Source: Rickettsiales bacterium
GTDB lineage: Bacteria > Pseudomonadota > Alphaproteobacteria > Rickettsiales > UBA998
NCBI GenBank assembly: GCA_024304995.1
Contig: JAMWZD010000001.1
Location: forward strand, 641,472 to 705,471
Direction: 5' to 3'
Length of the DNA: 64,000 bases
The notes under the pieces are model-generated. The model was not told where the DNA came from. It worked only from the letters and a program-made list of their open reading frames with translations, and did not search any database. Shown here one piece after another: positions 12,504-38,259 of the stretch (position 1 is its first letter; each line of letters begins with the position of its first letter). The position numbers and the translations under genes are program-made.

Positions 12504-12890
12504 ATGAACGGAGAAGAAACCAGACGCTTCATAGGCAGAATTATTATGTGTTTATTCGCAGGAATGCTCTTTTGGGTCTATTCCCAGCGCAATATCCCCA
12601 CAGGGTCATTTTCGCAAATGGGACTGTTTCTATTTACCTTCTTTCTGAATTTCTGCACTCAGTGGGCAATTTATAAATTGCAGGTACTGTGCGGAAAATG
12701 GATGCAGATGGTGCTGCTGGCACTGCAATGCATCTTTTTTTACTGGACATGGGAACACTCAAAATTTGTGTTTGTCGCACATGGATACAGGGAATATGAA
12801 AATTTTCTCTATACTCCATTAGAACAATTCGGCTTCATCTTTCCCTTATTTATTGTGATGCTGATTGTGCATACGGTGCGTAGCCGATAA
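12504..12890 (+). CDS. hypothetical polytopic membrane protein
   Basis: 128 aa with about 4 TM segments. Starts 7 nt after the lptE stop. No recognisable family. Confidence 0.45.
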   Translation: MNGEETRRFIGRIIMCLFAGMLFWVYSQRNIPTGSFSQMGLFLFTFFLNFCTQWAIYKLQVLCGKWMQMVLLALQCIFFYWTWEHSKFVFVAHGYREYENFLYTPLEQFGFIFPLFIVMLIVHTVRSR

Positions 12891-12950: not shown

Positions 12951-13973
12951 ATGCAACTTAAACCCCGTGACCTTCCAGCATATCTCAAAAACCCCGCTGC
13001 CTATAAAGCCGTGCTGATTTACGGCCCGGATGAAGGGCTGGTGCGTTCACGAAAAGATGCGATCTTAAAAACGATGGGGGTGAGCAAGGATGACCCGTTT
13101 GCCTATAATGCATATGACAGCCCGCAAATTGCTGATGAACCCTCATTGTTGCATGAAGGGTTAAGTGCCACCACATTGATGGGAGATGCACCCGTCATTG
13201 CCATTGCGCAGGCAACAGACAAAATTACTGCGCATGTGAAATCTGCACTGGAAAGCATCACCCAACCCAACCCGCTCATCATCACGGCAGGGGATTTGCA
13301 GAAACGTTCATCCCTTCGCAGTTTTTTTGAAGATGCTAAAGCGCGGGATGTTGCGAGCATTCCATGTTATCGTGACGAAGGCGCAAGCCTTGCGCAATTG
13401 GTGCGCAGCTTTCTGCAGGCACGCAAAATTGAAGCCTCCCCCCAACTGATAACCTTGCTGAGCGAACAGCTTGGCAATGACCGCGCAGTGACTGTCAGCG
13501 AACTGGAAAAACTGGATTTATATCTGGGAGAACGTCGCAGATTAAGCGAAGATGATATTGAAAAGATTCTTGCCAACAACCAGCACAGAGAAAGCAGTGA
13601 TGCATTGCTGGATGGATTATGTGGCAATCAGGCTAATTTTTATGAAAAATATGATGCGCTGATCGCTGCAGGAGAACAGCCCATTGCGCTGCTTCGTCTG
13701 CTTGGGCGGATTATGCAACAATTGCTGGATGCCAAAGCCATGCAGCAGCAGGATCAGCTTTCCCCTGCATCCGCTGTGGAACGATTGCGCCCATTTGTGT
13801 ATTTCAAAGATAAGCCGCGATATATAAACATCCTTAGCCGCATGGATATGCCACATCTGCTCAGCCTCATGTGCAATGTGCAGGATGCTGAACTGCAAAT
13901 TAAGCGAGGAGCATTACACCACGAACTGATTATATCGCAGATGCTTATGTTAAGGAGAACACTTCCTAACTAA
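12951..13973 (+). CDS. holA: DNA polymerase III delta subunit
   Basis: 340 aa with the synteny position after lptE. N-terminal LIYGPDEGL motif. Confidence 0.85.
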   Translation: MQLKPRDLPAYLKNPAAYKAVLIYGPDEGLVRSRKDAILKTMGVSKDDPFAYNAYDSPQIADEPSLLHEGLSATTLMGDAPVIAIAQATDKITAHVKSALESITQPNPLIITAGDLQKRSSLRSFFEDAKARDVASIPCYRDEGASLAQLVRSFLQARKIEASPQLITLLSEQLGNDRAVTVSELEKLDLYLGERRRLSEDDIEKILANNQHRESSDALLDGLCGNQANFYEKYDALIAAGEQPIALLRLLGRIMQQLLDAKAMQQQDQLSPASAVERLRPFVYFKDKPRYINILSRMDMPHLLSLMCNVQDAELQIKRGALHHELIISQMLMLRRTLPN

Positions 13974-14021
13974 AACCATAAGTATTATTCAGTATATTAA
14001 ATTGATTTTTAGTTATATATA

Positions 14022-14048
14022 TTGACTTTAATAAATTTGAAATATAAT
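14022..14048 (+). promoter_or_regulatory. sigma70-like promoter candidate for the PanA-like operon
   Basis: TTGACT, a short 15-nt spacer, then TATAAT. GGAGGG RBS lies 7 nt before the TTG start at 14083. Confidence 0.25.
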
Positions 14049-14082
14049 CACATTATTAATTTATAATGAGGGAGGGAACAAA

Positions 14083-14670
14083 TTGACTAACAATTCCAAA
14101 AACTTTCATTATACAATAAGTAATATCTTTGAAAACGAATTAAAGATAGATGATCCTGCGTACACTCCAGGAAGTGTGGTAAATTGGATCTTTGAACAAG
14201 CTCGTTTAGACAATATACGTGATATATCAGCAATGAAGTTACAAAAATTACTTTATTTTATGCATGGAAATTATTTAAGATCTTTTAATAAACCTCTAGT
14301 TAATGAATATGCTCAAGCTTGGGACTATGGTCCTGTTTTTCCATCTGTTTATCATGAATATAAAACCAATGGATCTAAAGCTATTCCACTCAATGATATA
14401 AATTTAATGAGAGAATATGACACAAATATCAAAAAGTTTGTTCCGCTAATAGTAAACCGTAATGACAAAGAAACCATAACTATTTTACGAAATACATGGG
14501 AAAAATATAAAGATAAAAGCGCTAGTTATTTATCTGATCTAACTCATAGACCTGATGATGATAACCCTTGGATTATAATAAGAAATATATCTAAAGAAGA
14601 GAAAATATCGAACATATCAACTCCCAATAGCATTATCAAAAAATATTTTGATGAAAATAACGACTTATAG
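14083..14670 (+). CDS. Panacea (DUF4065) domain protein, PanA/SocA-like antitoxin
   Basis: MKLQKLLYFMHGNYL...AQAWDYGPVFPSVYHEYK matches the DUF4065 core. TTG start with a strong RBS. Very AT-rich (13/60 GC in the first 60 nt). Confidence 0.8.
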   Translation: MTNNSKNFHYTISNIFENELKIDDPAYTPGSVVNWIFEQARLDNIRDISAMKLQKLLYFMHGNYLRSFNKPLVNEYAQAWDYGPVFPSVYHEYKTNGSKAIPLNDINLMREYDTNIKKFVPLIVNRNDKETITILRNTWEKYKDKSASYLSDLTHRPDDDNPWIIIRNISKEEKISNISTPNSIIKKYFDENNDL

Positions 14671-14679
14671 TTCAATGTG

Positions 14680-15240
14680 ATGGATGATGAGGAAATAAGA
14701 TTAGAAGAAGAGGCGAAGAAAAATGTTGCTATTGCTTATGGTAATGCACATAGAAACAGAGCTATCACTTTAGGTAAAAGACTAAAATGCTGGTATTATA
14801 TAATTGTTGGTGAAGTAATCTTATTAATTGCATCTTTTTTTGTATATAACTGTTTGTTCACAAAAAGCATTAACACAATTAAAGAAAGTCTATGCGAAGC
14901 AAAGTATTGTTACTTAGAAGCATCACAGATTCTCACAGTTTACTATATAGGGAAAGCTAGTTTTGTAAGTACTTTTATAATAATATTAATATGGACACTT
15001 AAACGTGTTACTCGTTTACAAGCTATGAGAATGATTCACTCAGACAAAGCCGTCATGGCAAACACTTTACAAACACTATTAGGTACAGAATTAGATAAAA
15101 ATTCAATTTTACGTCAAGCAACCAAAAATATGTTTAGCTCTTCTTTCGAAGTCATAAATACAAAAAAGAAAAACAAATCTTCTGAAATTATAGAATTAAA
15201 GGAATTATTGAATACTTTACTAAAAGAAAAAGAGGATTAA
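14680..15240 (+). CDS. hypothetical two-TM protein, candidate toxin partner of the Panacea protein
   Basis: Starts 10 nt after the upstream stop. Two TM helices (WYYIIVGEVILLIASFFVY and FVSTFIIILIWTL) and a charged coiled-coil-like tail. No recognisable family. Confidence 0.5.
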   Translation: MDDEEIRLEEEAKKNVAIAYGNAHRNRAITLGKRLKCWYYIIVGEVILLIASFFVYNCLFTKSINTIKESLCEAKYCYLEASQILTVYYIGKASFVSTFIIILIWTLKRVTRLQAMRMIHSDKAVMANTLQTLLGTELDKNSILRQATKNMFSSSFEVINTKKKNKSSEIIELKELLNTLLKEKED

Positions 15241-15255
15241 CTATCTACGACACAT

Positions 15256-15690
15256 TTAATACAGCGCCATCATCACGCTGTGCAGGGTAATGACTAATGC
15301 AGTCATCACTGCACGCATATCCATAAACCACATTAGCGTAGCATCATAAATGCGTCTTTCTATCAGATAATGCACTCCAAATGCAGTCATATAAAGCAGC
15401 AGGCAGACTGTATCTGGCAGCGTAATTCCGAACAATGCCACCAGCGAGGGCATCACCGAATAACTCAGCCACCAGCATTTCGGTTTGTGGGAGGTCAGAC
15501 TATAGATCCAGATAACACCTCCCAGAAAAGAGAGTATGATCGCACTGTAAAAACGGAATATCTGCACGGGCGGCACGTCCAGCAGGGTGAGTCCCATATA
15601 ATGCAATATGATACATATGATAAACGGGGTCATGCCAGAGGCTGACAACACCCAGCTTTGTTTTTTGATGCTCTGTTCCATAGGTTGCAT
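15256..15690 (-). CDS. DUF3429-like membrane protein
   Basis: 144 aa with about 4 TM segments. YSAIILSFLGGVIW motif. Confidence 0.55.
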   Translation of the reverse strand: MQPMEQSIKKQSWVLSASGMTPFIICIILHYMGLTLLDVPPVQIFRFYSAIILSFLGGVIWIYSLTSHKPKCWWLSYSVMPSLVALFGITLPDTVCLLLYMTAFGVHYLIERRIYDATLMWFMDMRAVMTALVITLHSVMMALY

Positions 15691-15745
15691 ATAAGACGAA
15701 TTTACGTAATAACAATATTATTTCTGGCAAATTATGCCCTGCCCC

Positions 15746-15774
15746 TTCACAACCGCTTCAAATTCACTTATATT
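15746..15774 (+). promoter_or_regulatory. sigma70-like promoter candidate for ssrA
   Basis: TTCACA, 17-nt spacer, then TATATT. Lies about 85 nt upstream of the acceptor-piece 3' end. Confidence 0.4.
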
Positions 15775-15780
15775 AAAAGG

Positions 15781-16180
15781 GTTGGTAACAACTATGGTAA
15801 TAGAGCTGAAACTGGAATAAGCGACCTGGACCCGGGGGCAGTACCCGGCATCTCCACCTGATGAGTTGGTGGTTGGTAGTGATTCGTTGGTAGATTGCAA
15901 ACCACCAACTACATACTAACCGACTCCTCAGGTGGGGATGACACAGCTTCGACAGGCGTAATAAAGAGTGGATGTTTACCCGGTATGAGCAATACCGATT
16001 GCCCACAAGGCAACAACATGCTCACATTCAATAAGTGCAAACGATAACAACGCACTTGTTGCTGCTAACGACAACAACGTCGTAGCTGCTTCTATTGCTG
16101 CCTAAGGGACGCAATAAATAAGCACTAGCAGTGAACGCGGTCTGGGGGGCGCCGGGCAACAGAATGCCTCCCGCTTGATT
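15781..16180 (+). ncRNA. ssrA: two-piece (circularly permuted) tmRNA
   Basis: T-arm CCGGG-GGCAGTA-CCCGG plus CATCTCC-ACC ends at 15858. The 5' acceptor strand GGGGATG...CTTCGAC starts downstream at 15934, and the two strands pair with a G3-U. Tag ORF 16037-16105 starts with GCA and ends in ..IAA-TAA. The outer ends are approximate. Confidence 0.8.
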
Positions 16181-16363
16181 TTCCTTGCTTTTATCCTGAT
16201 GTTTATCTATGACTATTATTGATTAATCAATTTATATGCATGTCTGCAGCATCCATATAGATCTTTTTACGGTCGCTCCGTAAATCATTTCAACTTTTAG
16301 TCGTTTTTAATAAAACGATTTTTCGAAAGTCTACCCTAGTATTTTATTTCATTTTTTCTAATC

Positions 16364-17503
16364 ATGAAAATTCAAAAAATAGGTCAATTTTTCGCGTCCG
16401 CTTCTTTGATTCTTGGTTTGAGCCTGTCTGCTTCCGAAGCAGTTAATGCTCAAAATCTGCAAATTGAGAAATTTGGTACGCCTGTGCAATTTCAAACCCC
16501 TGAAGGGTTTGCTGATACGATAGACAGAAAAACGCAGTTAGAGCAGGAAACAACTGACAAATTGCCAGAGAACACTGAATATACATTTGATGATGTTGAA
16601 CCTGTCAACACGCCCTCGCGTGAAGACACAAACAGTATTATCAGGCAACAATTTCAGAATGACACTGGCAAGCCAGATGATGTTTATGTAGAGCCTTCTC
16701 TGCCTGAACGCACTCGCACTCGCAAAAGACAACCTGTTGATGAAATTCGCCCCGCCCCTCGGCGTGAACGGATTTATCGTCAACCTGTTGTGGCGCGCGA
16801 AACTGTTGTAGAAGGCTTTGTAGAATCGTCAGCAGCAGCGCTTGGAGGTAAGATTACTTCCGACGTTGCGGCAGGTAACAATTGGCGTGTTGGCGCAAGC
16901 GGTGGCATCATTTACTATAATGATGCAGCTAACGGCGCTGAATTGGATGTTAATTTAGGAGTAAATGGAACCTATGAAGTTTCTCCAAGACTTGACATTA
17001 ATGCGGCTATTGACGTAACTGCCAGAAACCAGAATGATGACATTGAAGCGATAAGAACTCTCACACTCAACCCAGAGTACAATGCAGGGTCTAATCGAAA
17101 CAATGACATTCTTGTGGGTGGCAAACTCGTTAATCAAAGTGGCGGAATAGATGCTTATCAGGACTTTAACCGAAGCACTGTATATGCAACTTATGCAACA
17201 GATAATCTGACGGCAACTGTTTCTGCCTATCCTTTCATATCCTCTGCCTCCCTTGATGCAGAATATGAAGTTCAGGAAGGAACGAAGTTATCAGCTTATT
17301 TGGAAACCCCTCATACAGCCGATGCTGTCGAGGTCAACACTCAGCTTGATGCAAGTGTTGCTCAAGATGTAGCTAATAACGTTTTCAGCAATAATGACGT
17401 TATCACTCTTACAGGTGGATACCGCTCAGGCGCAGACTCCTTAGGAAACAACACCGTCTCAGATGGTGTTTACATTGGAGGCAGCTACCAACTACAGTTA
17501 TAA
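16364..17503 (+). CDS. secreted, possibly outer-membrane beta-rich protein
   Basis: Signal peptide ...LSASEAVNAQ. A charged low-complexity region is followed by an alternating beta-like C-terminal half. Confidence 0.5.
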   Translation: MKIQKIGQFFASASLILGLSLSASEAVNAQNLQIEKFGTPVQFQTPEGFADTIDRKTQLEQETTDKLPENTEYTFDDVEPVNTPSREDTNSIIRQQFQNDTGKPDDVYVEPSLPERTRTRKRQPVDEIRPAPRRERIYRQPVVARETVVEGFVESSAAALGGKITSDVAAGNNWRVGASGGIIYYNDAANGAELDVNLGVNGTYEVSPRLDINAAIDVTARNQNDDIEAIRTLTLNPEYNAGSNRNNDILVGGKLVNQSGGIDAYQDFNRSTVYATYATDNLTATVSAYPFISSASLDAEYEVQEGTKLSAYLETPHTADAVEVNTQLDASVAQDVANNVFSNNDVITLTGGYRSGADSLGNNTVSDGVYIGGSYQLQL

Positions 17504-17521
17504 AAAGCGCCTTCGCTTTTT
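17503..17521 (+). terminator. terminator hairpin 1
   Basis: AAAAGCG-cctt-CGCTTTTT, immediately after the stop codon. Confidence 0.5.
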
Positions 17522-17548
17522 ATAACTGACTAAAACCTTAAACCTTAT

Positions 17549-17582
17549 AAGACATTGCCTGATCAGCAATGTCTTTTTTTTG
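17549..17582 (+). terminator. rho-independent terminator 2
   Basis: AAGACATTGC-ctgatca-GCAATGTCTT followed by a T8 run. Confidence 0.75.
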
Positions 17583-17651
17583 TCATATTGCATCAACACA
17601 AATTTAAGATAGTTATGTAAAACTGCAGATAAATAATAAAAATATATCATT

Positions 17652-18398
17652 ATGCAGACATATGAAGTAGCCGCAGGAGACGTATTATTCCGAGAGGGGG
17701 ACAAGGGAGAGTTTGCCTGTGTGATCCGCAAAGGCAGGGTGCAGATTCTTAAATCCACCAAACAGGGAGAGGTGGAGCTTGCCATATTGGAAGAAGGCGA
17801 GGTATTTGGCGAAATGGCACTGTTTGAGCCGAAGGACACACGTTCCGCCACGGCGCGCGCTTTAGATGATCTAATAGTCGATGTGATTGGTGAAGATGAA
17901 ATGCACGCATTAATACGCCAGTCTCCACAAATGTTGCAGCCTTTCGTCTCCGCGCTGGTGACGCGGCTTCGTGAAATCAACATTCGCCTGGCAGAAAAAG
18001 AACGTGCCACAATGATTCTGGGCAGGCAGATAAACAGTTTTACAATTACAGCGAAAAATGCCATTGAAGGGCTGGTGGACACTGCACAGATCACCATAGC
18101 TGATTTGCCCTTCACCGTTGGCGGTTACAATAAAGATGAAAAACGTCCTTATCGCGAAGCTATGGAAATCCCCTGCCCGCCTCAGAACATGAATGTCAGC
18201 TTCCTGCATTGCGCCATTGAGCGCCATGAAGATGGGATTTATGTGGTGGATAAAGGCTCACGCTTTCAGACACATGTGAACGGGCGTTCCATCGGGCGCG
18301 GAGAAGCCTCAACCAAAGCGCTGCTGACGCCAGGTGAAAATCAGGTGATTCTGGGCAAGCGCGAAGCCAGCATGGAACTGGAAATCGTCTGCAGTTAA
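17652..18398 (+). CDS. cyclic nucleotide-binding domain + FHA domain protein
   Basis: N-terminal cNMP beta-roll (FGEMALF...RSATARAL). C-terminal FHA-like region (FTVGG...HCAIERHEDGIYVVDKGSRFQTHVNG). Confidence 0.7.
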   Translation: MQTYEVAAGDVLFREGDKGEFACVIRKGRVQILKSTKQGEVELAILEEGEVFGEMALFEPKDTRSATARALDDLIVDVIGEDEMHALIRQSPQMLQPFVSALVTRLREINIRLAEKERATMILGRQINSFTITAKNAIEGLVDTAQITIADLPFTVGGYNKDEKRPYREAMEIPCPPQNMNVSFLHCAIERHEDGIYVVDKGSRFQTHVNGRSIGRGEASTKALLTPGENQVILGKREASMELEIVCS

Positions 18399-18488
18399 TC
18401 GGCAAAAACACAGCATTGTCACTTGACCCTTACGGCAAAAAACCTTATTCTTCCCAGAATTTGCCTAGAACCTAACTTTTGGACGTGT

Positions 18489-19655
18489 ATGACTGATTCT
18501 TCTTCATTCCTGCCCCCGTATAATGCCATACTAGTAATGGAAAACGGGGATGAGTTTTACGGATATGGTATTGGGCGTGAGGGAACCGTGTATGGTGAGT
18601 TATGCTTTAACACTGCCATGAGCGGCTATCAGGAAATTCTGACTGACCCGTCTTATTACGGGCAGATTATCAATTTCACCACACCGCATATCGGCAATGT
18701 AGGCTGCAATCTGGAAGATATTGAATCTCAGGTAAAATCAGCGCGTGGCTGCGTGATACGTGAAGCCATCACCTCCCCTTCCAGCTGGCGCTCAAGAGGC
18801 AACTTTAATCTCTGGCTGGATAATCAGGGAATTACAGGGATCAGCGGTATCGACACTCGCGCATTAACCTCCTTCATCCGCACACATGGTCATCCGAAAA
18901 TCGCCATAGCCTATCATGCAGATGGGCTGGATGCGATTGACATCAGCACCATTCACGCAGATCTGGCAGAAACAGACTCACTCAAAGGTGCAGAACTCAC
19001 CGAATTTGTGACCGAACCCGAAAAACGCAACTGGTCAGAAAGCATCTGGGAACTGGAACATGGATATGGCGAGAATGCCAATACATCCTTCCACGTGGTG
19101 GCGATTGATTATGGCGCGAAAATGAACATTCTGCGCCTGCTGACGGCGAAAGGCTGCAAGGTGACGGTTGTGCCAGGCAATACAGATGCAAAAACCATTA
19201 TGAAGCTGAATCCTGACGGAGTATTTCTTTCCAATGGCCCAGGTGACCCGTCTGCCACAGCGCATTTTGCACTCCCTGTCATTAAAGAATTATTACATGC
19301 CAACATGCCCATTTTTGGCATTTGTCTTGGGCATCAGCTGCTTGCACTGGCGCTGGGCGCAAAGACTGAAAAAATGTATCAGGGGCATCGCGGTGCAAAC
19401 CATCCTGTAAAAAATCTTCTAAGCAACAAAGTGGAAATCACCAGCCAGAATCATGGTTTTGTGGTGCATAGTGATTCCCTGCCTTCCAACGTGGAAATCA
19501 CCCATCTTTCGCTATTTGATGGCACGATTGAGGGCATCAAAAGCAAAGAAAAACCTGCCTTCTCTGTGCAATATCACCCCGAATCCTCCCCTGGCCCGCA
19601 TGACAGCGAATATCTCTTCCAGCAATTTGTAGACATGATGCAGGGGCGTGCGTGA
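18489..19655 (+). CDS. carA: carbamoyl-phosphate synthase small subunit
   Basis: GATase motif ICLGHQLL and the HGFVV/HPE triad region. Start trimmed to the ATG at 18489. Confidence 0.95.
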   Translation: MTDSSSFLPPYNAILVMENGDEFYGYGIGREGTVYGELCFNTAMSGYQEILTDPSYYGQIINFTTPHIGNVGCNLEDIESQVKSARGCVIREAITSPSSWRSRGNFNLWLDNQGITGISGIDTRALTSFIRTHGHPKIAIAYHADGLDAIDISTIHADLAETDSLKGAELTEFVTEPEKRNWSESIWELEHGYGENANTSFHVVAIDYGAKMNILRLLTAKGCKVTVVPGNTDAKTIMKLNPDGVFLSNGPGDPSATAHFALPVIKELLHANMPIFGICLGHQLLALALGAKTEKMYQGHRGANHPVKNLLSNKVEITSQNHGFVVHSDSLPSNVEITHLSLFDGTIEGIKSKEKPAFSVQYHPESSPGPHDSEYLFQQFVDMMQGRA

Positions 19656-20017
19656 TGGATGCAATCCATAATGATAGCTCTGCACCTCCCGCCATCCATC
19701 ATGCGTTGCTAAAAGATGCTGATATTGATGATACGGATTTCTTGCGCGATATTGCCGCCCTGCCTTATGTGGAGCGTATCCTGTTATTTGGTTCGCGCAC
19801 AACACAGGATTATATGGAAGGCGCGGATCTGGACATCGCCGTAGACTGCCCTGATGCAAGCGATGAAGAATGGCATCATATCACGGACATAGCAGAACGT
19901 GCCTATACCTTGCTTTCCATAGATTGCGTCCGACTGGACACCCTAAAAGATGGGTTTTTCAAAGAACAGATTTTGCAGCACAGCAAAGTGATTTGCGATA
20001 AGCGTGGCGGTGCGTGA
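19655..20017 (+). CDS. minimal nucleotidyltransferase (MNT, HI0073-like antitoxin)
   Basis: ILLFGSRTTQDYMEGADLDIAVD (GS...DxD). Its ATG overlaps the carA TGA (TGATG). Confidence 0.85.
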   Translation: MDAIHNDSSAPPAIHHALLKDADIDDTDFLRDIAALPYVERILLFGSRTTQDYMEGADLDIAVDCPDASDEEWHHITDIAERAYTLLSIDCVRLDTLKDGFFKEQILQHSKVICDKRGGA

Positions 20018-20433
20018 TGACAGACATCACACTGGTAACCCATGCCGTCACGCAAACGCGCAACGCGCTGAACCGTTTAGACGAAGCGATTGGCGAACCG
20101 CTGGATTCTCATGCGTTCATGCTGGATGCCACTTTGCAGCGCTTTGAATATAGCTACGAAATGCTGTGGAAAACGCTTCGCAAATTGTTTGCGCTCAAAC
20201 ATATCCGCGTGAGTAACGCATGGGATGCCTTTAAAGAAGCCTATGCGCAACAGCTTATCAGTGATAAAGTCCTATGGAAACGCATTATAGAAGACCGCAA
20301 CCGCACGGTGCATCATTATTCTAACGAAGATGCCACCGCCATTTATCACCGCGTGTGCGATGAATATTTTTTGGCGATGACCGCGTTATTAGATGTGATT
20401 GAACGAGAACTGCAACATGAGTTTGTGGGGTGA
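20017..20433 (+). CDS. HEPN-domain protein, HI0074-type nucleotidyltransferase substrate-binding family (toxin)
   Basis: LQRFEYSYEMLWKTLRK and the Rx4H motif RNRTVHHY. Its ATG overlaps the MNT TGA (TGATG). Confidence 0.85.
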   Translation: MTDITLVTHAVTQTRNALNRLDEAIGEPLDSHAFMLDATLQRFEYSYEMLWKTLRKLFALKHIRVSNAWDAFKEAYAQQLISDKVLWKRIIEDRNRTVHHYSNEDATAIYHRVCDEYFLAMTALLDVIERELQHEFVG

Positions 20434-20458
20434 TGTAACGCTGGAGAGTAAATAGCAA

Positions 20459-21562
20459 ATGGCTTTTGATAAACCAACATTAATTATAATTGGTGCTGGA
20501 GCAAGTTTACCTTACAACTATCCTCTTGGTGATGATTTGATTAATGAGATAATCACGGCAAGCGATGAAGTTATTCATCGTGGGAAAATTACTGAAGCAT
20601 ATAGTCACTTAAAAGATATGCTATTGTTGCATGACCCTACTAGTATTGATACGTTTATGAAAAATCATGCAACAACTGGGGCAAATAGCGATTATAATAT
20701 ACAGAGTATATGCAAACAATTGATTGCAGAAATTATATTAAAAAAAGAAAACGCAGAATATTTTGATAAAAATAAACAGGTAGGAGGCAATCTAAATTGG
20801 TATCGTTACCTTGCACACGCTATTTTAGAAGATATTGATTCATTAAAAGACCCTAATGCTGCGCTTCCATTTAGAATTATTACCTTCAATTATGACGTAT
20901 CTCTAGACTATTATCTATTGACACGTATTTTAGCTGCTCCGCTACTATCCGATGAAGAAAAGCAAATTATATTAAAGAAGCTAGGCAATAATATTATACA
21001 TGTATATGGTGCTGTGAGAAACGTACCATGGGAAGATACAACATCACATGAAACAATTATTAGACATCTAATTAATAAACAACTAATAAAACCATCTAGC
21101 AATGCAATGACGATAAACGGTTCTGAGCAATATCTTGGTAGAGAAGACATTGAAATTCTTTATGGCATTGCAAATTTAAAAACTCAAAATTCTAAAAGCG
21201 TATTTTCTCCTTGTAAGGCGCAGGACAGCCATGACTTCAAGAACTTTTGCAATCAAGCTGCATCAAATTTACGCATCATTGGTGAAGAAAGAGCTTCAGG
21301 CAAGCAATCGCTTGCACCTTACTATGAGTTTATGCTAAATGAAATGAAGAAAATTATGTTTCTTGGGTTTGGCTTTGACAAAACTAATATGGAACTTGTT
21401 TTTTTATCACACAGACTATCTTCTCTGGAAACTATTGAATATACCAATTATGGAAACAAAAAGAAAATAAACGATTTTGTGCATTCGTACTTTGAGGTTG
21501 TTGACATTTCTTGTTCAACCAAAGACGTATATAATGCACTAGTTAATGACTTTAACTTATAG
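20459..21562 (+). CDS. stand-alone SIR2-like (SIR2_2-type) protein
   Basis: Motifs IIIGAGASLPYNYPLG, ITFNYDVSLD, IIHVYGAV and IMFLGFGFDKTN in SIR2-family order. AT-rich (20/60 GC in the first 60 nt). Confidence 0.6.
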   Translation: MAFDKPTLIIIGAGASLPYNYPLGDDLINEIITASDEVIHRGKITEAYSHLKDMLLLHDPTSIDTFMKNHATTGANSDYNIQSICKQLIAEIILKKENAEYFDKNKQVGGNLNWYRYLAHAILEDIDSLKDPNAALPFRIITFNYDVSLDYYLLTRILAAPLLSDEEKQIILKKLGNNIIHVYGAVRNVPWEDTTSHETIIRHLINKQLIKPSSNAMTINGSEQYLGREDIEILYGIANLKTQNSKSVFSPCKAQDSHDFKNFCNQAASNLRIIGEERASGKQSLAPYYEFMLNEMKKIMFLGFGFDKTNMELVFLSHRLSSLETIEYTNYGNKKKINDFVHSYFEVVDISCSTKDVYNALVNDFNL

Positions 21563-21603
21563 CTACATAGTGATAGCTTGAATACCTGAATAAGAGATAC
21601 ATC

Positions 21604-24600
21604 ATGCCTAAAAGAACCGACATACATTCCATCCTCATCATTGGCGCGGGGCCTATTGTTATTGGGCAGGCGTGTGAATTTGATTATTCTGGAACGCAGG
21701 CGTGCAAGGCATTGCGGGAGGAAGGGTATCGGGTGATTCTGGTGAATTCCAACCCTGCCACCATCATGACAGACCCTGACATGGCGGATGCGACCTATAT
21801 TGAGCCCATCACACCTGAATTTGTGGAAAAAATTATCGCCAAGGAAAAGCCAGATGCTCTGCTGCCCACGATGGGTGGGCAAACGGCGTTGAATTGCGCC
21901 AAAGCGCTGGCAGAACGTGGCGTGCTGGATGCACATGGTGTGGAACTGATTGGTGCAAAGTTGGAAGCCATCAACATGGCGGAAGACCGTCAGCTTTTTG
22001 CAGATGCCATGAAGCGCATTGGGTTGCAATGCCCTAAACAAGCTACGGCACATTCGATGGATGAAGCATTTAAAGTGCTGGATGAAGTCGGTCTGCCTGC
22101 CATTATCCGCCCATCATTCACCATGGGTGGCGCAGGCGGCGGGGTTGCCTATAACCGTGAAGAATTTGAGCAGATCGTTAAAAGCGGGCTGGAAGCCTCT
22201 CCCACCACAGAAGTGCTGATCGACGAGTCTATTCTTGGCTGGAAAGAGTTTGAAATGGAAGTGGTGCGTGACCATGCGGATAACTGCATCATCATCTGCG
22301 CGATTGAAAATATAGACCCGATGGGCGTACATACAGGCGATTCCATGACCGTTGCACCTGCGCTGACGCTGACCGACAAAGAATATCAGATTATGCGTGA
22401 TGCTTCCATTGCGGTGCTACGTGAAATTGGCGTGGATACGGGTGGTTCCAACGTGCAGTTCGCTGTAAACCCTGAAAATGGACGCATGATCGTGATTGAG
22501 ATGAATCCGCGTGTGTCACGTTCCTCTGCGCTGGCATCCAAAGCGACAGGTTTCCCGATTGCTAAGGTGGCGGCAAAACTGGCAGTGGGCTATACGCTGG
22601 ATGAAATCACCAACGATATTACCCGCGCCACACCTGCGTCTTTTGAGCCAAGCATTGATTATGTCGTGACGAAAATCCCGCGTTTTGCATTTGAAAAATT
22701 CCCAGAAGCAGAAAATTCACTGACCACGTCTATGAAATCCGTCGGTGAAGCGATGGCGATGGGGCGCAATTTTGCGGAATCCATGCAAAAAGCATTGCGT
22801 TCGCTGGAAACTGGACTGACTGGCTTCAATGAAGTGGTCAAAAATTCAAAGAACCCTACGGATGAAATTAAGAGCCGTCTGGCGCAACCAACACCAGACC
22901 GTCTGCTTATAGTGGCTGATGCGTTCCGCCATCATTTCAGTCTGGAAGATATTGCAGCCATCACCAAATATGACCCGTGGTTTTTAGAACAAATCCGCAA
23001 TATTGTGGAAATGGAACAGCAACTGAAAGTGAAAGGGCTGCCAACTGACAAACGCTCATTACTGCACATCAAAAAAATGGGCTTTAGTGACGACCGTCTG
23101 GCAGAACTCACGCAGCATGAAACCAAAACTGTGGCATCACTACGCGAAAATCTTGGTGTGTTCCCCGTTTACAAACGGATTGATACCTGCGCAGGCGAAT
23201 TTGATGCACTGACACCCTATATGTATTCCACCTATGAAGGGGATGGCGTTCATGATGGAATGTGTGAGTCTGACCCGACAGACAAGGAAAAAATCATCAT
23301 TTTAGGCGGCGGACCGAACCGAATTGGGCAGGGGATTGAGTTTGATTATTGCTGCGTTCATGCGGCCTATGCCCTTTCTGAAGCGGGTTTTGAAACCATC
23401 ATGGTGAATTGCAACCCTGAAACAGTCTCTACCGATTATGACACATCTGACCGTCTGTATTTCGAACCACTGACTGCCGAAGATGTGATCAATCTTATCC
23501 GCAAAGAGCAGGAAAATGGTTTTGTACGTGGTGTGATTGTGCAGTTTGGCGGGCAAACGCCACTGAAACTGGCGCGCGCACTGGAAGCAGCGGGCATCCC
23601 GATTATCGGCACATCACCCGATGCGATTGACCTGGCGGAAGACCGTGAGCGCTTCCAGAAGCTACTTTATTCTTTGGAGTTGAAGCAACCTGCCAACACT
23701 ATCTGCCATAGTGAAGAAGAAGTGCTGGAACAGGCTGACGTGATGGGATACCCCGTGGTGGTGCGCCCATCTTACGTGCTTGGCGGGCGGGCGATGGCAA
23801 TTATTTATGATTCTGAGCGTCTCAAAAAATATTTGCATGACGTATTGCGTGAATTTCAGGACAACCCGATTTTGCTGGATTCATTCTTAAAAGATGCGAT
23901 TGAAATTGATGTGGATGCACTCTCAGACGGGCAGCATGTGCATGTTTGTGGCATCATGGAACATATTGAGGAAGCAGGGATTCACTCAGGTGATTCCGCC
24001 TGTTCCCTGCCGCCACATACGCTCAGTGATGAATTGATAGATGACATTAAGATTCAAACCATTCAGCTTGCACGCGCACTGAACGTGGTTGGATTGCTCA
24101 ACATTCAGTTTGCCGTGAAAGATGGCGATATCTTCATTATTGAAGTGAACCCACGCGCCAGCCGCACTGTACCGTTCGTGGCAAAAACGATTGGCATTCC
24201 TGTAGCAAAATATGCATCCCGCCTGATGGCAGGTGAAAAACTTGCGGATCTGGGGCTGTCGCATGACAGCATCATTGACATGGAAGCATTAGGGCATGTG
24301 GCTGTGAAGGAAGCGGTATTGCCATTCAAACGCTTCCCTGGCAGTGATGCTATTTTAGGTCCTGAAATGAAATCCACAGGTGAAGTGATGGGCATTGACA
24401 GCTCATTCGGACGCGCCTTTGCCAAAGCCTATATGGCGACGGGCAGCAAACTTCCTAATGAAGGCAATGTGTTCGTGTCCGTTAAGGACAGTGACAAACA
24501 TGCGCTGATAGACATTTGCACCTCGCTGCGTGAACTGGGCTTCAGCATTGTTGCGACCAAAGGAACGCAGGAGTTTCTGGCAGGGCATGATATTGCTGCA

Positions 24601-24861
24601 TCGGTTGTGAACAAGGTTCGTCAGGGGCGGCCACATATTGTTGATAGTCTGAAGGATGGTAAAATTCAGTTTGTGATTAATACGACCGAAGGCGCAAAAT
24701 CCATCAGCGATAGCGCATCCATTCGAAAAACATCATTGCAGCAGAATATCCCATATTGCACGACTATCGCAGGGACGCGCGCCTTGATTGAAGCCATGAA
24801 GTTTATTCACAAGGAACGTGGCATGAGCGTGAAAGCCATTCAGGAGTACTTCACCGCGTGA
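21604..24861 (+). CDS. carB: carbamoyl-phosphate synthase large subunit
   Basis: 1085 aa with duplicated ATP-grasp halves and an MGS-like C-terminus. Confidence 0.97.
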
Positions 24862-24920
24862 GTATGCTAAGCTAATCATAATTATAAATATGTTAAGGTT
24901 TTCATGCGATACTATAGCGT

Positions 24921-27900
24921 ATGAAATTAGCCGACTTGTATACAACAACCTGCCTTAGTGCCGTTCTGCTCAGCATGACATGTGCAGGCACGGTGCTGGC
25001 TGCCCCTGAAGGCGCGCAGGTTGCTGCTGGTTCAGCCAATATAAGTTCACCCCAGTCAGGGCATGTGGTAATTCAACAGCACACAGATAAAGCTGTAATC
25101 AACTGGAACCAGTTTGATATTAAGGCAGGAGAACATACAGAATTTCGCCAGCCCTCTCAAAATGCATCCACCTTAAACCGAATTAAAGGGAACGCACCAA
25201 GCAACATCAATGGCAGATTAACTGCCAATGGCAATATTGTTGTGGTGAATCCTCATGGTGTGGTGTTTGGAAAGAATGCCAAAGTGGATGTGGGCGGGCT
25301 GGTTGCCAGCACAGCCGACATTGCTGATGAGAATTTCATGAAAGGCACACTGGGTTTTGACCGCCCTGGCAAAGCAGATGCAGCCATCATCAATCATGGT
25401 GTGATTACCGCAAAAGATGCAGGACTGGTAGGGTTGGTAGCACCGCACGTGGAAAATCATGGTACGATACAGGCAAGATTAGGAAAAATAGTTTTGGCAT
25501 CAGGTGAAACAGCAACAGTTGATATGCACGGAGACGGGTTAATTCAGGTTGCTGCAAGCGGAGACAGCAAAAAACTGCTTGTTTCGCAGCAGGGAACGTT
25601 ACTTTCAGAAGGCGGCACTATTGCATTGACTGCAGCAGATGGCCGCAACATGCTTGACAGCCTGATTCAGGCAGATGGAGCATTATCAGCTGCTTCTATC
25701 CAGCATTCTGGTGGCAGAATTGTGATTACAGGTCAGGATAGCGATATAGAAGTAAATGCTGATATGGATGTTTCTGGTATGGATAAGGCTGGAAGCCTAT
25801 ATATTGGCGGGGATTTTAAGGGCAATGGCACATTACCCACCGCCAGAAATGTAACGCTAAACAAGGATGCTGTCATACGCGCAAATGTGAGAGGCGATGG
25901 CAAAGGCGGCACGGTGATCGTCTGGTCAGACGAACAGACAAGATTTGCTGGCACAATTGAAGCAAAAGGGAGCGCAGGCGGTTTTGTTGAAACATCAGGT
26001 AAACAAAAGCTGAACATTGCTGATTCTGCATCTGTGGATACGCAAAATGGCACATGGCTCCTGGATCCTCAGGATTTTACCATCGCAGATTCTGGTGGAG
26101 ACATGACGCCAGCTGCATTGCAGACCAATCTGGCAAGTAACAATGTCACCATTACCAATGCAGCAGGTGCAGGGAACGGTGACATCACCATATCAGATGC
26201 AGTTAGCTGGAGCAGCAGCAACACGCTGACACTGGATGCCATCCGCCACGTTCAGGTGGATGATGCCATCAGCAACAGCGCAGGGGGTAATCTGATTTTG
26301 CGAGCAGATAAGAATGGCACTGGCACGGGAACAGTCAATTTTGGTGGCGGTGGGTCTGTCAGCATGAATACGGGGCGTAGTGATATATATTATAATCCCA
26401 CCAGCTACACCACACCAACCAATTATGCAGCGAATGTGACAGGCACGTTTGATGCATGGATGTTAGTGCATGATGTGAATGATTTGCAGGATATCAGTGG
26501 CAATAAAAGCGGTAATTATGCACTCAGCAAAGATATTGATGCCAGCGCAACAACGGGTTGGAATGGTGGTTTAGGGTTCAATGCGATTGGGTTCAGCGGT
26601 AGCGAATTTACTGGAAAATTTAACGGTCAGAATTTTGCTATTAATAACTTATTTATCAACCGTCCTTCTCAGGGCAATCTGGGTATGTTTGGCGGCATTG
26701 ACAGCGCAGAAATTAAAAATGTGCGTGTATTATCCGCAAACATTACTGGTCAGGATGATACTGGCATATTAGCGGGCGATGTTGAGCAATCCACCATAAC
26801 TAACGTGCATACCTCAGGTAATGTTACTGGAAACATTAGTGTTGGCGGTCTTATTGGTGAAGCTTCAGACAGCACCACTATCACTCAGTCATCTTCCGCA
26901 GCAAATGTTTCAGGCAATGGTGAAGTGGGCGGACTTATTGGTGACCACGAAATGGCATCTTCAACCAGCAATAGTTTTGCCACAGGAAACGTAACATCCG
27001 CAGGAGATAATATCGGCGGACTCATTGGTAATAATGACAGCGTTACCGTGTCCGATAGTTATTCTACGGGATCTGTTACAGGAAATTACCGCGTTGGTGG
27101 TTTGGTAGGTGAAAACAGCACAAATTCCACAATAACCAATAGCTATTCTACATCCAATGTAAATGCCGATAGAAATGTAGGCGGTTTAACAGGAGACAAT
27201 AACAATAACTCCACCATTACGAACAGTTATGCAACAGGCATCATTACAGCAGGCGACGACAACGCAGGAGGGTTGGTGGGTCTCTTAAGTGGCAATTCAA
27301 CCATTACTACCAGCTATGCAACTGGTAATGTAAGCGGAGAAGATGATGTTGGCGGTTTGGTTGGGGATTCAGAAGGCACCATTTCCAACAGCTACGCTAC
27401 GGGAAGCGTTACTGCAAGAGACAATGTGGGTGGTTTTGCAGGAAGACATGATAATGGGGCAACAACGTCAAATAGTTATGCACTCGGCAATATATCTGGA
27501 AGAGATAATGTTGGCGGGTTTATAGGTCTTAATGACAGCGCAACGTCTACGAATAATTACGCCACGGGTACGGTATCTGGAAGAAATTCAGTTGGCGGTC
27601 TGGTTGGTAGCAACGCTGGCACGTCCTCAGTCACTCAAAGTTATGCAACTGGCAATATCACTGCCACTGCTGGCTCACTGAGTATTGGAGGGTTAGTAGG
27701 GGAACATAAAGATAACGCAACCATAACTTCCAGTTATGCGACGGGAGACATTTCGGGTGATGGTGACTGTGTAGGTGGATTGGTTGGTTGGGCAATGGAC
27801 AATGCACGCACAGAAACAAGTTTCTCAACAGGTAACATTACAATAGGAGCGGGAAGAAATATTGGTGGCCTAACAGGGTTAGTTTCGAACGATACTGTCA

Positions 27901-28907
27901 CGCTCAACAGTTACGCAACAGGTATAGTGAATGGTGATGATGATGTTGGCGGACTAGTTGGGGAAATGAGAGAAAATGCAGTTTTAAACTTTGTATATTC
28001 AACTGGGCAGGTTTCAGGGAATACAGATGTTGGTGGCTTAATCGGGCTACGCGCCAATGCATCCAGTGTCACCAATGGATATTGGAATGTGACCACATCA
28101 GGGCAGGCAACCAGCAACGCAGGTACGGAAACAGGGCTGACCACAGCACAAATGATGGACGCGGCATCTTTCACAGGATTTGACATTGCCACAACAGGTG
28201 GCAGCTCCAATGTATGGCGCATTTATGAAGGTAACACTGCCCCATTACTGCGATCTTTTTTAACGCCGCTTAACGTAAAAGCGAATGATGCTACAATGAC
28301 ATTCAATGGCAGTGCTTACAATGGTAGCGAAGGGGTAACTTATACCACCTTCAACACGGGCGATAATAGCAGCAATTTACTGGGAACACTAGATTATGGC
28401 AGCTCTGATACAGATATTGGAACGTATGTTTTAACGCCAAGCGGTTTGTATGATGACCAATTCGGATATGATATTAGTTACAGCACAGGAACATTAAACA
28501 TTACTGTTGCACCACCTGCACCTTCTGCACCAACAATACAGCCAACATCACCAAAAACCAAAGTGCCGACAACTGTTCCAGAAACCACTCCTCCATCATC
28601 ACCTCAGACATTACCAGCGCCTGAGACTCCTGTGGTTCAAACGCCCCCCACTTCCAAACCAGAATCAAAGCCTCGCTCCACATCAATTCCCACAACGGTA
28701 GAAATTGTATCGCAAAAGCCAGCCCCTGAAAGCAACGGAACTGCTTCAGTTGCAAAAGGCACGCAGCGTTCACCCCAGCACACTTCGTCAAATAAGATGA
28801 TTTTTGTTGAAACAGATGAGACCAGCAATGCAACCTCTAAAGGGGATATTATAATCAGCAAACCGCTTGCAAAAATGCTTAATCTGACCCGCTCATTATT
28901 TGATTAA
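24921..28907 (+). CDS. TPS-domain (filamentous haemagglutinin N-terminal) exoprotein with GLUG repeats and a Pro-rich tail
   Basis: Signal peptide. TPS motifs INWNQFDI and VVNPHGVVFG. About 16 GLUG-type repeats (VGGLVG). C-terminal P/T/S-rich segment. Confidence 0.85.
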   Translation: MKLADLYTTTCLSAVLLSMTCAGTVLAAPEGAQVAAGSANISSPQSGHVVIQQHTDKAVINWNQFDIKAGEHTEFRQPSQNASTLNRIKGNAPSNINGRLTANGNIVVVNPHGVVFGKNAKVDVGGLVASTADIADENFMKGTLGFDRPGKADAAIINHGVITAKDAGLVGLVAPHVENHGTIQARLGKIVLASGETATVDMHGDGLIQVAASGDSKKLLVSQQGTLLSEGGTIALTAADGRNMLDSLIQADGALSAASIQHSGGRIVITGQDSDIEVNADMDVSGMDKAGSLYIGGDFKGNGTLPTARNVTLNKDAVIRANVRGDGKGGTVIVWSDEQTRFAGTIEAKGSAGGFVETSGKQKLNIADSASVDTQNGTWLLDPQDFTIADSGGDMTPAALQTNLASNNVTITNAAGAGNGDITISDAVSWSSSNTLTLDAIRHVQVDDAISNSAGGNLILRADKNGTGTGTVNFGGGGSVSMNTGRSDIYYNPTSYTTPTNYAANVTGTFDAWMLVHDVNDLQDISGNKSGNYALSKDIDASATTGWNGGLGFNAIGFSGSEFTGKFNGQNFAINNLFINRPSQGNLGMFGGIDSAEIKNVRVLSANITGQDDTGILAGDVEQSTITNVHTSGNVTGNISVGGLIGEASDSTTITQSSSAANVSGNGEVGGLIGDHEMASSTSNSFATGNVTSAGDNIGGLIGNNDSVTVSDSYSTGSVTGNYRVGGLVGENSTNSTITNSYSTSNVNADRNVGGLTGDNNNNSTITNSYATGIITAGDDNAGGLVGLLSGNSTITTSYATGNVSGEDDVGGLVGDSEGTISNSYATGSVTARDNVGGFAGRHDNGATTSNSYALGNISGRDNVGGFIGLNDSATSTNNYATGTVSGRNSVGGLVGSNAGTSSVTQSYATGNITATAGSLSIGGLVGEHKDNATITSSYATGDISGDGDCVGGLVGWAMDNARTETSFSTGNITIGAGRNIGGLTGLVSNDTVTLNSYATGIVNGDDDVGGLVGEMRENAVLNFVYSTGQVSGNTDVGGLIGLRANASSVTNGYWNVTTSGQATSNAGTETGLTTAQMMDAASFTGFDIATTGGSSNVWRIYEGNTAPLLRSFLTPLNVKANDATMTFNGSAYNGSEGVTYTTFNTGDNSSNLLGTLDYGSSDTDIGTYVLTPSGLYDDQFGYDISYSTGTLNITVAPPAPSAPTIQPTSPKTKVPTTVPETTPPSSPQTLPAPETPVVQTPPTSKPESKPRSTSIPTTVEIVSQKPAPESNGTASVAKGTQRSPQHTSSNKMIFVETDETSNATSKGDIIISKPLAKMLNLTRSLFD
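26673..28080 (+). repeat. coding tandem repeats (~28-30 aa GLUG units)
   Basis: Units of the form NSYATGNVSGxxxVGGLVGxxxxxSTIT recur about 16 times. Confidence 0.8.
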
Positions 28908-28916
28908 GATGTGCAT

Positions 28917-29441
28917 TTAATTGTGATTTGCGATTGCATATAATCCAATAAAAATCTTAGGGTCTATATGTATTCCGCGCTGCTGCATCTCGTTTAACGT
29001 GGTTGTTACATTTTCAACAGACACTTCATGCACGGTGATATTTTCTGTCTCATCACCACCGCCTTCAGCAATTTTTTTAATATGGTGAGCTACGAAAAAA
29101 TGCATCATTTCATTGCTCATGCCAGATGATATTGGGCCATGCGTAATGCGTTCCATACGCTCTGCCTGATAGCCTGTTTCTTCAAGCAGTTCTCGCATTG
29201 CGGCTGCTTCTGCGCCCTCCCCTTTGAAAGCGGCTTCGTCACCAATCAGCCCTGCAGGCAATTCCAGCGTATTTGCGTTCAGTGAGGCACGATATTGTTC
29301 CACCAGAATCAGTTTCCCTTCATCATTTACCGCCGTAATAATCGCAGCTTCCATGCCTGAATTGCGCGTGATAAATTCAAACGTGCCGCGTTTTTCAAGC
29401 GTCAGCCAGTCACCAGCATACAGTGTCTTTTTGTCTGTCAT
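28917..29441 (-). CDS. NUDIX hydrolase (ADP-ribose pyrophosphatase-like)
   Basis: Nudix box LPAGLIGDEAAFKGEGAEAAAMRELLEETG. Start trimmed to the ATG at 29441. Confidence 0.8.
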   Translation of the reverse strand: MTDKKTLYAGDWLTLEKRGTFEFITRNSGMEAAIITAVNDEGKLILVEQYRASLNANTLELPAGLIGDEAAFKGEGAEAAAMRELLEETGYQAERMERITHGPISSGMSNEMMHFFVAHHIKKIAEGGGDETENITVHEVSVENVTTTLNEMQQRGIHIDPKIFIGLYAIANHN

Positions 29442-29445
29442 AATC

Positions 29446-32400: not shown

Positions 32401-32526
32401 CTGAATCGCATCCTGCAATGGGTCGTAAGCGGTTGCAAGCGCACATAATTCATGCATCAATTCGGTTTCATCCACCAGTGCTTGCTGGCTGATCTGGTCT
32501 AATTGGGGGTTATAATCAAAGCTCAT
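29446..32526 (-). CDS. putA: bifunctional proline dehydrogenase / P5C dehydrogenase
   Basis: 1026 aa. PRODH barrel plus an aldehyde dehydrogenase domain (ETGGQNCMVV). No N-terminal RHH domain is apparent. Confidence 0.95.
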   Translation of the reverse strand: MSFDYNPQLDQISQQALVDETELMHELCALATAYDPLQDAIQQDAAEAIKTMRSHPPHMGVEQFIQQFGLKEKEAIALLCLAESLLRIPDSRTADSLINDKLKGANWRKFYDEHTSLFDHAQITGLRMSSEIASLRGNDGIFEKMVYSLGEPVLRKALKAAMHVLGNSFVAGKTIKDAFSHLSAEAKKGYDFSFDMLGEGARTQAQADAYYEKYERAITEIAKQEGSKRHSISIKLSALHARYKYAHKAQVMAELYPRVRDLCLLSGKHNIALSIDSEEARRLDLQCELFAALLHDEALKDCPDIGFVLQAYQKRALPVIALLKKIAKNTNRRIPVRLVKGAYWDSEITWAQMDGLPSYPVFTNKEYTDVSYLACAATLLDAGDAIFPQFATHNVMSAMAVKALAKQKGREKEFEFQRLFGMGVSLYNQLIGGYPCRIYAPVGAFDALLPYLIRRLMENGANGNFVNQVMNPHTSISELTQNPLELAKAALEKNPPIPLPQDIFSNRKNSLGYELGLRAHYDALHKERSPFLNATYEAHCIINGEVTRSDVTLKSVSPANLDDVIGECSMATSEMLKHVVSAAKAGATEWAKQDAELRATTLEKAAELLYERRHLFYTLLAREAGKTIEDAIAEVREAEDFCRYYAVQARALAQGELCESYTGETNLLHYRPKGVAACISPWNFPLAIFVGQVVAALVAGNSVVAKASEHTAIIAYEAVRLLHEAGVSYGALQYVIAEGADFGKQVIADDAVSVVAFTGSTQVARTINRTLAAREGALPKLIAETGGQNCMVVDSSALLEQATDDIIHSAFGSAGQRCSALRVLFIQDEIMDTLVPMITGAMKLLHIGDPLSYDTDVPPVISKTAYDGLQAHIDEMRTQGKLIYQCEMPEHAKEGLFVAPALCRLDAIDELKKEHFGPILHIVPFRVKEFNTLIEQINSTGYGLTFGMHSRVSTRIARLKAGVKAGNLYINRSMTGAVVGVQPFGGMGLSGTGPKAGGANYLKAFMNEQVITENIVAIGGNMELLH

Positions 32527-32712
32527 AGCGTGAGCCTATAGGACATCAGCGCGTCTGTCTATGCTAGGTCCTTACTATTATAATTTGACAGCAAATAAAT
32601 AATGTAACATTTATGTATCTCCCAACTATACATCAACAGTGCTAACTTGCTTGCAACATGGCTGCATAATATTACATTAGCTTTTTCAAACATAATAGTA
32701 TTCAATAATAAT

Positions 32713-34759: not shown

Positions 34760-34772
34760 AGGCCTGCCCTCT

Positions 34773-35741: not shown

Positions 35742-35866
35742 ATCTTACCTCGCGTGACTGATGTTATTTTAAGTTCAACTAGCTATCATACACATCAAAC
35801 CATACTAATGTGTTAATTACATGCAATAATCTGCATATGAATGCGAATTAAATTGCTATTGTGACT

Positions 35867-38197: not shown

Positions 38198-38259
38198 ATG
38201 GTGTGTCCCTCATGCGTGTTGTGTTGATAATGCTATTATGCATGAAAGGTGTTAAAAAA

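Follow-up and report, generated by a model that had tools for sequence, protein, structure and literature searches.

Antitoxins with a Panacea domain are known to occur with dozens of unrelated toxins, and the validated partners include some that act on membranes. Kurata et al. 2022 (PMC8832971) validated nine PanA-PanT pairs; the PanA antitoxins form complexes with their toxins and neutralize them directly, and three of the PanT toxins contain transmembrane (TM) segments and depolarize E. coli, all three being encoded in the order antitoxin, then toxin. Ernits et al. 2023 (PMC10440598) described the direct neutralization of a Bartonella membrane toxin by a stand-alone Panacea protein and proposed that Panacea is primarily a sensor. 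In this study, we analyzed a 64,000-nucleotide stretch of a Rickettsiales genome (GCA_024304995.1, contig JAMWZD010000001.1; "the window"), in which an AT-rich islet contains a Panacea gene (gene 1) followed by a gene for a two-TM protein (gene 2). The original prediction, made from the letters of the window, had named gene 2 as a candidate membrane-acting PanT-type toxin, and both open reading frames (ORFs) were found on the plus strand where it had placed them. We consider that the islet is probably a self-contained two-gene toxin-antitoxin (TA) cassette of the PanA-PanT type (type II-like) with a membrane-acting toxin, and that gene 2 most likely represents a new toxin partner family in this already known class. 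The features of the cassette are as follows.

13974..15255, no strand: AT-rich islet (GC 0.28) between the holA stop codon and the DUF3429 stop codon, with the whole cassette inside
14022..14048, plus strand: promoter-like site TTGACT-15 nt-TATAAT, picked by eye, with a putative function
14070..14076, plus strand: Shine-Dalgarno-like GGGAGGG, 6-7 nt ahead of the TTG start, picked by eye
14083..14670, plus strand: gene 1, stand-alone Panacea-domain protein (PF13274; PanA-like antitoxin) of 195 aa with a TTG start
14680..15240, plus strand: gene 2, two-TM helical-hairpin protein of 186 aa with an ATG start, candidate PanT toxin

A Panacea protein and a predicted membrane hairpin

Gene 1 matched the Pfam family SocA_Panacea (PF13274, DUF4065) with an E value of 2.8e-20 and a score of 73.7 bits, against a gathering threshold of 25.7 bits. 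The match covers residues 53-157 and profile positions 1-109 of 113, and the protein carries the core motif KLQKLLYF...AWDYGPVFPSVYHEY, so that the proposed Panacea assignment is confirmed. We found no helix-turn-helix (HTH), PAD1 or zinc-binding domain (ZBD), nor any other extra domain, in gene 1, which therefore encodes a stand-alone Panacea protein. The orthologue in a syntenic relative, locus L001, aligns from residue 2, backing the N-terminal extent that follows from the TTG start; this start and the strong ribosome-binding site before it had both been part of the original prediction and were recovered. The best NCBIfam match of gene 1 was the SocA antitoxin model NF047745 (E 4e-29, residues 28-192). 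At 101.5 bits, this match does not come near the curated equivalog cut-off of 190 bits, and hence gene 1 is a Panacea protein that is related to SocA without being its orthologue. Gene 1 also had strong matches to two PHROG families of unknown function (PHROG 1281 at 1.2e-35). A PDB sequence search with the PanA profile identified no solved relative.

Gene 2 encodes a protein with an acidic N-terminus (MDDEEIRLEEE), two hydrophobic helices at residues ~37-60 (TM1) and ~84-107 (TM2) and a Lys/Glu-rich tail, all of which had been noted before. Basic residues flank the TM helices (GKRLK before TM1 and KRVTRLQAMR after TM2), and because of this distribution the positive-inside rule predicts an N-in/C-in topology with both ends in the cytoplasm. 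AlphaFold2, run with the family alignment described below, returned a model with a mean predicted local distance difference test (pLDDT) score of 86 and helices at residues 2-73, 81-134, 140-151 and 155-185. In this confident model, gene 2 would form a long helical hairpin whose hydrophobic tip lies in the membrane.

To define the gene-2 family, we used a word-indexed search of 5.8 billion proteins, which returned gene 2 itself and one relative with 43% identity. A HMMER profile built from these two sequences was then used for a full pass over 1.84 billion cluster representatives, resulting in 21 family proteins at an E value of 1e-3 or better. Most of them have 184-253 aa and match over the full length, and the aligned family shares one architecture. 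The well-kept positions are G21, R27, W38, F60, L85, Y88, Y89, K92, W105, L113, D122, K123, A127, T129, A147 and F152. Conservation is highest in TM2, in the helix that follows it (residues 108-134) and in a short FSSSFE helix, and lowest in the acidic N-terminus, the periplasmic turn and the Lys/Glu-rich tail. The helix right after TM2 is basic and conserved (R-x-x-R-L-Q-x-x-R-x-x-H-x-D-K), and its motif divides the family into two subgroups, RLQxLRxIHxDK and QLRRLxITYRDK. One protein of 365 aa (L060, positions 147-1244; P0049) has the gene-2 TM hairpin and post-TM2 helix (E 2.7e-4), preceded by ~220 aa of unrelated N-terminal sequence; the short contig does not reveal whether it has a Panacea neighbor.

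In agreement with the original prediction, gene 2 could not be placed in any known family by hidden Markov model (HMM) or by fold. Searches of Pfam, NCBIfam, PADLOC and PHROGs returned no family for gene 2, and a Pfam search with 19 family members at E values up to 10 gave scattered weak matches only, none of them to SLATT. The family profile had no meaningful match among PDB sequences, and a fold search of the AlphaFold2 model against PDB and BFVD gave generic long-helix matches, none with an E value below 0.06. When viral models were searched with Foldseek, two-TM suicide-effector proteins of the SLATT type were among the weak matches (E 0.1-0.4, probability up to 0.97); as the fold matches are not significant, we treat this likeness as a lead only. 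No relative was found when gene 2 was compared by tblastn with records of phages and plasmids, or in a viral scan with the gene-2 alignment.

The nature of gene 2 bears on a SocAB-like (type VI) arrangement, in which the Panacea protein would be a proteolytic adaptor that hands the gene-2 protein to ClpXP for constant degradation. This arrangement takes its appeal from the SocA model being the best NCBIfam match of gene 1 and from the naming of the Pfam family after SocA. The SocB toxin is soluble and binds the sliding clamp of DNA polymerase. A membrane hairpin is a different kind of partner, the bit score is that of a distant SocA relative, and the validated PanA proteins form complexes with their toxins and neutralize them directly (PMC8832971), which together make adaptor-mediated degradation highly improbable here.

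Strict and ancient linkage of the two gene families

We analyzed the genomic surroundings of gene-2 family members in nine readable loci, namely the window, L001, L008, L009, L010 (partial), L011, L012, L013 (labelled Candidatus Paracaedibacteraceae) and L059. In 9/9 of these, the gene-2 member is directly preceded by a Panacea-type gene in the same orientation, and the spacing between the two ranges from -4 to +20 nt. The upstream partners in L001, L008, L009, L011, L013 and L059 carry PF13274; the one in L012 is below the Pfam threshold but has the core KLQ...AW..G...PS.YHEY. Each locus has other housekeeping genes next to the pair (for example malic enzyme and S20, sulfatase and UPRTase, PNP oxidase and asd, or RNase PH and HemN), except that L001 shares the window's upstream neighbors. 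Because the surrounding genes differ from locus to locus, the conserved unit consists of exactly two genes. No integrase or transposase was present among the genes read around the pair, which comprised the called-gene tables of six loci and the ORFs around the pair in L013.

The two families also diverged together. Pairwise identities of PanA and gene 2 correlate (r = 0.44, Mantel p ~0.017), and a neighbor-joining tree of PanA proteins placed the gene-2-linked ones in two main groups that match the motif subgroups of gene 2. This tree is crude, and the PanA of L012 is beside one group and not inside it. A Panacea gene with a conserved partner in a recurring, reciprocal two-gene arrangement, which is a Kurata-type criterion for PanA-PanT pairs, was thus found in 9/9 loci. 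The pairing of the two genes that had been proposed from the window holds in every readable locus of the family, and the linkage is strict and ancient.

To place the window PanA among its relatives, we scanned one genome per species and identified 46 loci with related Panacea proteins. A gene-2 family member is located downstream in one of the 46, the Candidatus Paracaedibacteraceae genome (L013), which also contains the best PanA match. Downstream of most of the other related Panacea genes there is a short gene, often overlapping by 1-4 nt, whose product has 110-147 aa, a charged N-terminal half and two C-terminal TM helices. The closest metagenomic PanA homologues have the same short two-TM partner pattern, and some of them adjoin phage-type integrases. 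The occurrence of short two-TM partners at some loci and of gene 2 at others is partner swapping as described for Panacea, and the window PanA falls, judged by its closest sequences, among PanAs whose partners are mostly membrane hairpins.

Several groups of short partners matched one another in hhalign at 93-98%. One widespread family of short partners comprises proteins of 119-147 aa with a charged N-terminus and two TM helices (for example ...LSDGVLIALITTTTANVFGFF...), encoded just 3' of related Panacea genes in Chitinophagaceae, Bdellovibrionales and Latescibacterota (L016, L018, L025, L027, L029, L032-L037, L039, L041, L043 and L048). These proteins are mutually homologous (hhalign 96-98%) and are probably membrane PanTs.

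Within the window, 9 nt lie between the gene 1 stop codon (TAG) and the gene 2 ATG, and gene 2 has an alternative GTG start at 14677, one codon 5' of the ATG. Genes 1 and 2 share a reading frame here, with the TAG plus three codons between them (14668-14682). The pair in L009 is likewise in one frame, with the stop codon followed at once by the ATG, while the pairs at other loci are not, and the shared frame is probably incidental. A read-through fusion of the two genes was dismissed, as L001 and five other loci do not keep this frame relation.

Composition and genomic setting of the cassette

The GC content of the islet (13974-15255) is 28.0%, compared with 47.5% in the adjoining 2.9 kb on the left and 44.2% on the right, and the 600-nt segment with the lowest GC in the whole 64 kb lies within it. 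The earlier count of 13/60 GC in the first 60 nt is exact. Given the composition of the islet, random sequence would have one stop codon in roughly 11 codons, and the chance of 195 or 187 stop-free codons is ~1e-8 each; hence, genes 1 and 2 are not chance ORFs. The GC content at third codon positions (GC3) is 0.21 and 0.22 for the pair, compared with ~0.5 in the neighboring genes. In L001, it is 0.28 and 0.26, and the flanking genes are near 0.5. The overall GC content of the pair is lower than that of the flanks in every locus with usable flanks (the window, L001, L008, L009, L011, L012, L013 and L059). GC3 is also lower in 4/5 other loci measured; the exception is L008, where overall GC is lower and GC3 is not.

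The window and L001 have the same gene order, leuS-lptE-x128-holA-PanA-gene 2, so that a survey of the holA interval in this relative, of the kind suggested with the original prediction, recovers the same pair at the same site. The two loci are 78% identical in LeuS, 67% in LptE, 58% in x128 and 60% in holA, compared with 49% in PanA and 43% in gene 2. By this measure the pair (43-49%) evolves faster than its neighbors (58-78%). Either the pair is old at the holA site or it was replaced there in place. Its low GC3 persists, although simple vertical descent at one site would be expected to have removed the difference. Possible causes are in-place replacement by AT-rich donor alleles via the conserved flanks, or selection for AT-rich sequence.

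A fixed site among housekeeping genes could point to a domesticated, non-toxic membrane module, in which gene 2 would be a membrane-anchored signalling or scaffold protein with a physiological role in this lineage and the Panacea protein a cytoplasmic regulator, sensor or chaperone, with no addiction or suicide. The pair occupies the same position after holA in two genomes that have diverged to the level of species, the 9 loci lie among housekeeping genes and the genes read around them include no integrase or transposase, gene 2 is conserved in polar cytoplasmic helices, unlike a simple pore-forming peptide, and a primary role of Panacea as sensor has been proposed (Ernits et al., PMC10440598). 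Against this, the family is rare and patchy, with 21 representatives among 1.84e9 proteins, the pair outpaces its neighbors in evolution and its composition is strongly foreign-like, all of which are typical of accessory conflict genes; moreover, the Panacea pairings tested in experiments (PMC8832971, PMC10440598) have all been studied as TA systems. We therefore regard domestication, the main rival reading, as unlikely.

The original prediction had given the pair its own promoter. From the window alone this call is weak. Promoter-like matches in the AT-rich stretch were not above those in shuffled sequences (8 found vs 10.9 expected), and TTGACT-15-TATAAT was not listed by our consensus promoter scan, because its spacer has 15 nt and the scan demands 16-18 nt. 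In L001, however, the spacer ahead of the orthologous pair contains TTGACA-16-TAAAAT, an 11/12 promoter match, at the corresponding position, and the upstream spacers of the window and L001 align around a common TTGAC (-35 element). This match at the aligned TTGAC lends some weight to the putative promoter of the window.

The features flanking the islet are as follows.

12951-13973, upstream of the islet: holA, with a weak Pfam DNA_pol3_delta_C match
15256-15690, minus strand: DUF3429 gene (Pfam), convergent, downstream of the cassette
15742-16175, plus strand: alpha-type permuted transfer-messenger RNA (tmRNA, ssrA; Rfam alpha_tmRNA, 188.8 bits)

These are the neighbors that had been given for the cassette. 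The alpha type of the tmRNA identifies the host as an alphaproteobacterium. An integrase is absent among the flanking window proteins that were scanned against Pfam, the other flanking ORFs being named by eye only, and no direct repeats of note were found around the islet. The neighborhood of ssrA itself was real in the window but is not conserved: L001 has no tmRNA within 18.5 kb, and hence the closeness of ssrA to the cassette is incidental. The DUF3429 gene stands between the islet and ssrA. We rejected an ssrA-targeted, integrase-borne island, because there is no integrase, there are no meaningful flanking repeats, and the syntenic pair in L001 lies without a tmRNA in this distance. ARAGORN did not detect a tmRNA or tRNA in any part of the window, probably because the tmRNA has the permuted two-piece form. 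The x128 gene is a hydrophobic ORF of 128 aa between lptE and holA (12504-12890, plus strand) with no Pfam family; its 58% identity at the same position in L001 indicates that it is a real gene.

Downstream of the pair, L001 contains an unrelated 400-aa gene, a 77-aa gene for a cyclic nucleotide monophosphate (cNMP)-binding protein, PfkB, ClpA and ClpS. The order cNMP77-PfkB-ClpA-ClpS is present in the window at 34529-38574, 19 kb off. Synteny breaks right after the cassette (window 15256-34493 vs L001 8540-14220), and two AT-rich islets mark both ends of the window segment that intervenes before cNMP77-PfkB-ClpA-ClpS.

The second of these is a two-gene islet at 32647-34493 (plus strand), between putA and the small cNMP-binding gene. 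It encodes a 399-aa AAA_15/AAA_21 ATPase (PADLOC PDC-M38A 2e-120, AbiLi 2e-52) and a 216-aa DUF3226 protein (PDC-M38B 8e-48), and is a candidate phage-defence pair. A further low-GC ORF of 367 aa is located between carA and carB (20459-21562, plus strand); it belongs to no Pfam family, and PADLOC gave only a weak match, to SIR2 (8.7e-5).

Proposed function and comparison with known systems

In the reading that we favor, genes 1 and 2 would be co-transcribed from a promoter in the spacer between holA and gene 1 and would probably be translationally coupled. The gene-2 product would be an inner-membrane protein composed of a charged N-terminal helix, the two-TM hairpin, the basic helix, the FSSSFE helix and the Lys/Glu-rich tail. 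PanA would bind the cytoplasmic helices directly, with a predicted interface at residues 19-36 and 108-158, and thereby keep gene 2 from oligomerizing in, or inserting into, the membrane. Loss, degradation or triggering of PanA, with phage infection as one conceivable trigger, would set the gene-2 protein free to depolarize or permeabilize the inner membrane, and growth would stop. For this cassette, we infer the toxicity, the direct neutralization, the membrane as target and the trigger. Signs of a foreign module are the GC3 of 0.21 vs 0.5, the faster divergence and the presence of another AT-rich, defence-type islet in the window.

Several observations weigh against a membrane-acting PanT. 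When the gene-2 family was compared by hhalign with five groups of short two-TM partners of neighboring PanAs, the probability stayed below 30%, and gene 2 is longer than most short partners seen here. Its conservation is strongest in cytoplasmic helices and not in the TM segments, a pattern that is also compatible with a non-toxic membrane protein under regulation. The cassette is at the same chromosomal site, among housekeeping genes, in two genomes whose LeuS proteins differ by 22%, and no mobile-element gene adjoins it in the loci read; such stability exceeds the patchiness that is typical of TA modules. Finally, neither the PADLOC defence models nor phage or plasmid records gave a match.

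The proposed trigger raises the question of whether the cassette serves mainly in abortive infection, with PanA sensing a phage cue and freeing the membrane effector, which would be compatible with a PanA-PanT-type cassette. TA systems, including those linked to PanA, are increasingly tied to defence, in keeping with the proposed sensor role of Panacea (PMC10440598). The other AT-rich islet matches the candidate defence system PDC-M38 (2e-120 and 8e-48) and AbiLi, and SLATT proteins were among the weak Foldseek viral matches. However, no PADLOC model matches either protein of the cassette, Pfam SLATT was not found in the 19 members searched and the Foldseek matches are not significant. In addition, phage pressure is uncertain if the host is an intracellular symbiont, as hinted by the best PanA match being from Candidatus Paracaedibacteraceae. 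We consider a main role in abortive infection to be possible but doubtful. More speculative still, and in our view rather improbable, is that gene 2 is not one more pore-forming peptide but a distinct, PanA-dedicated membrane effector with its own conserved cytoplasmic module, kept AT-rich, through selection or repeated allelic replacement, at a fixed site in probably intracellular alphaproteobacteria; it would then be part of a domesticated, Panacea-sensed switch unlike the known PanTs, used for abortive infection or host interaction.

Each new partner family of Panacea widens the catalogue of ways to stop bacterial growth. What is new here is a well-delimited and very rare candidate toxin family with a confident structural model; the general picture of PanAT systems is unchanged by it. 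The conserved cytoplasmic motifs of gene 2 are clear targets for mutagenesis, and the pairs of the window and L001 are natural, diverged orthologous cassettes for cross-neutralization. The lasting AT-richness at a fixed site adds a small puzzle on the persistence of such cassettes.

Overall, the cassette shares features with several described systems. As in SocA-SocB of Caulobacter (type VI, NF047745), gene 1 belongs to the Panacea/SocA fold family and the host is an alphaproteobacterium, but the NF047745 score falls short and the partner is a membrane hairpin and not of the SocB type. Like the SLATT two-TM effectors, gene 2 has cytoplasmic helices around a two-TM hairpin; unlike in SLATT systems, the 19 members searched have no Pfam SLATT domain, and no nucleotide-signalling gene was seen beside the pair in the loci read. 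The toxFtsL(D9):PanA system of Gelidibacter mesophilus (PMC10440598) likewise has a larger (281 aa) helical TM toxin that is neutralized by a stand-alone Panacea protein, but a GAF domain and an FtsL-like region are present in that toxin, and Pfam finds nothing comparable in gene 2. Gene 2 differs from the short two-TM partners of related PanAs in having ~80 extra cytoplasmic residues after TM2 with conserved motifs. The membrane PanTs of E. coli STEC O31 (T3), Bartonella apis/choladocola (T12, NetFlax D11) and Helicobacter sp. (T4) (PMC8832971, PMC10440598) were compared by description, and relative to them gene 2 would be a separate, longer family with a conserved cytoplasmic module. In the features that could be compared, the locus nonetheless fits this class of membrane PanA-PanT systems, as the antitoxin is a stand-alone Panacea protein, the antitoxin gene comes first and the spacer between the two genes is tiny or overlapping.

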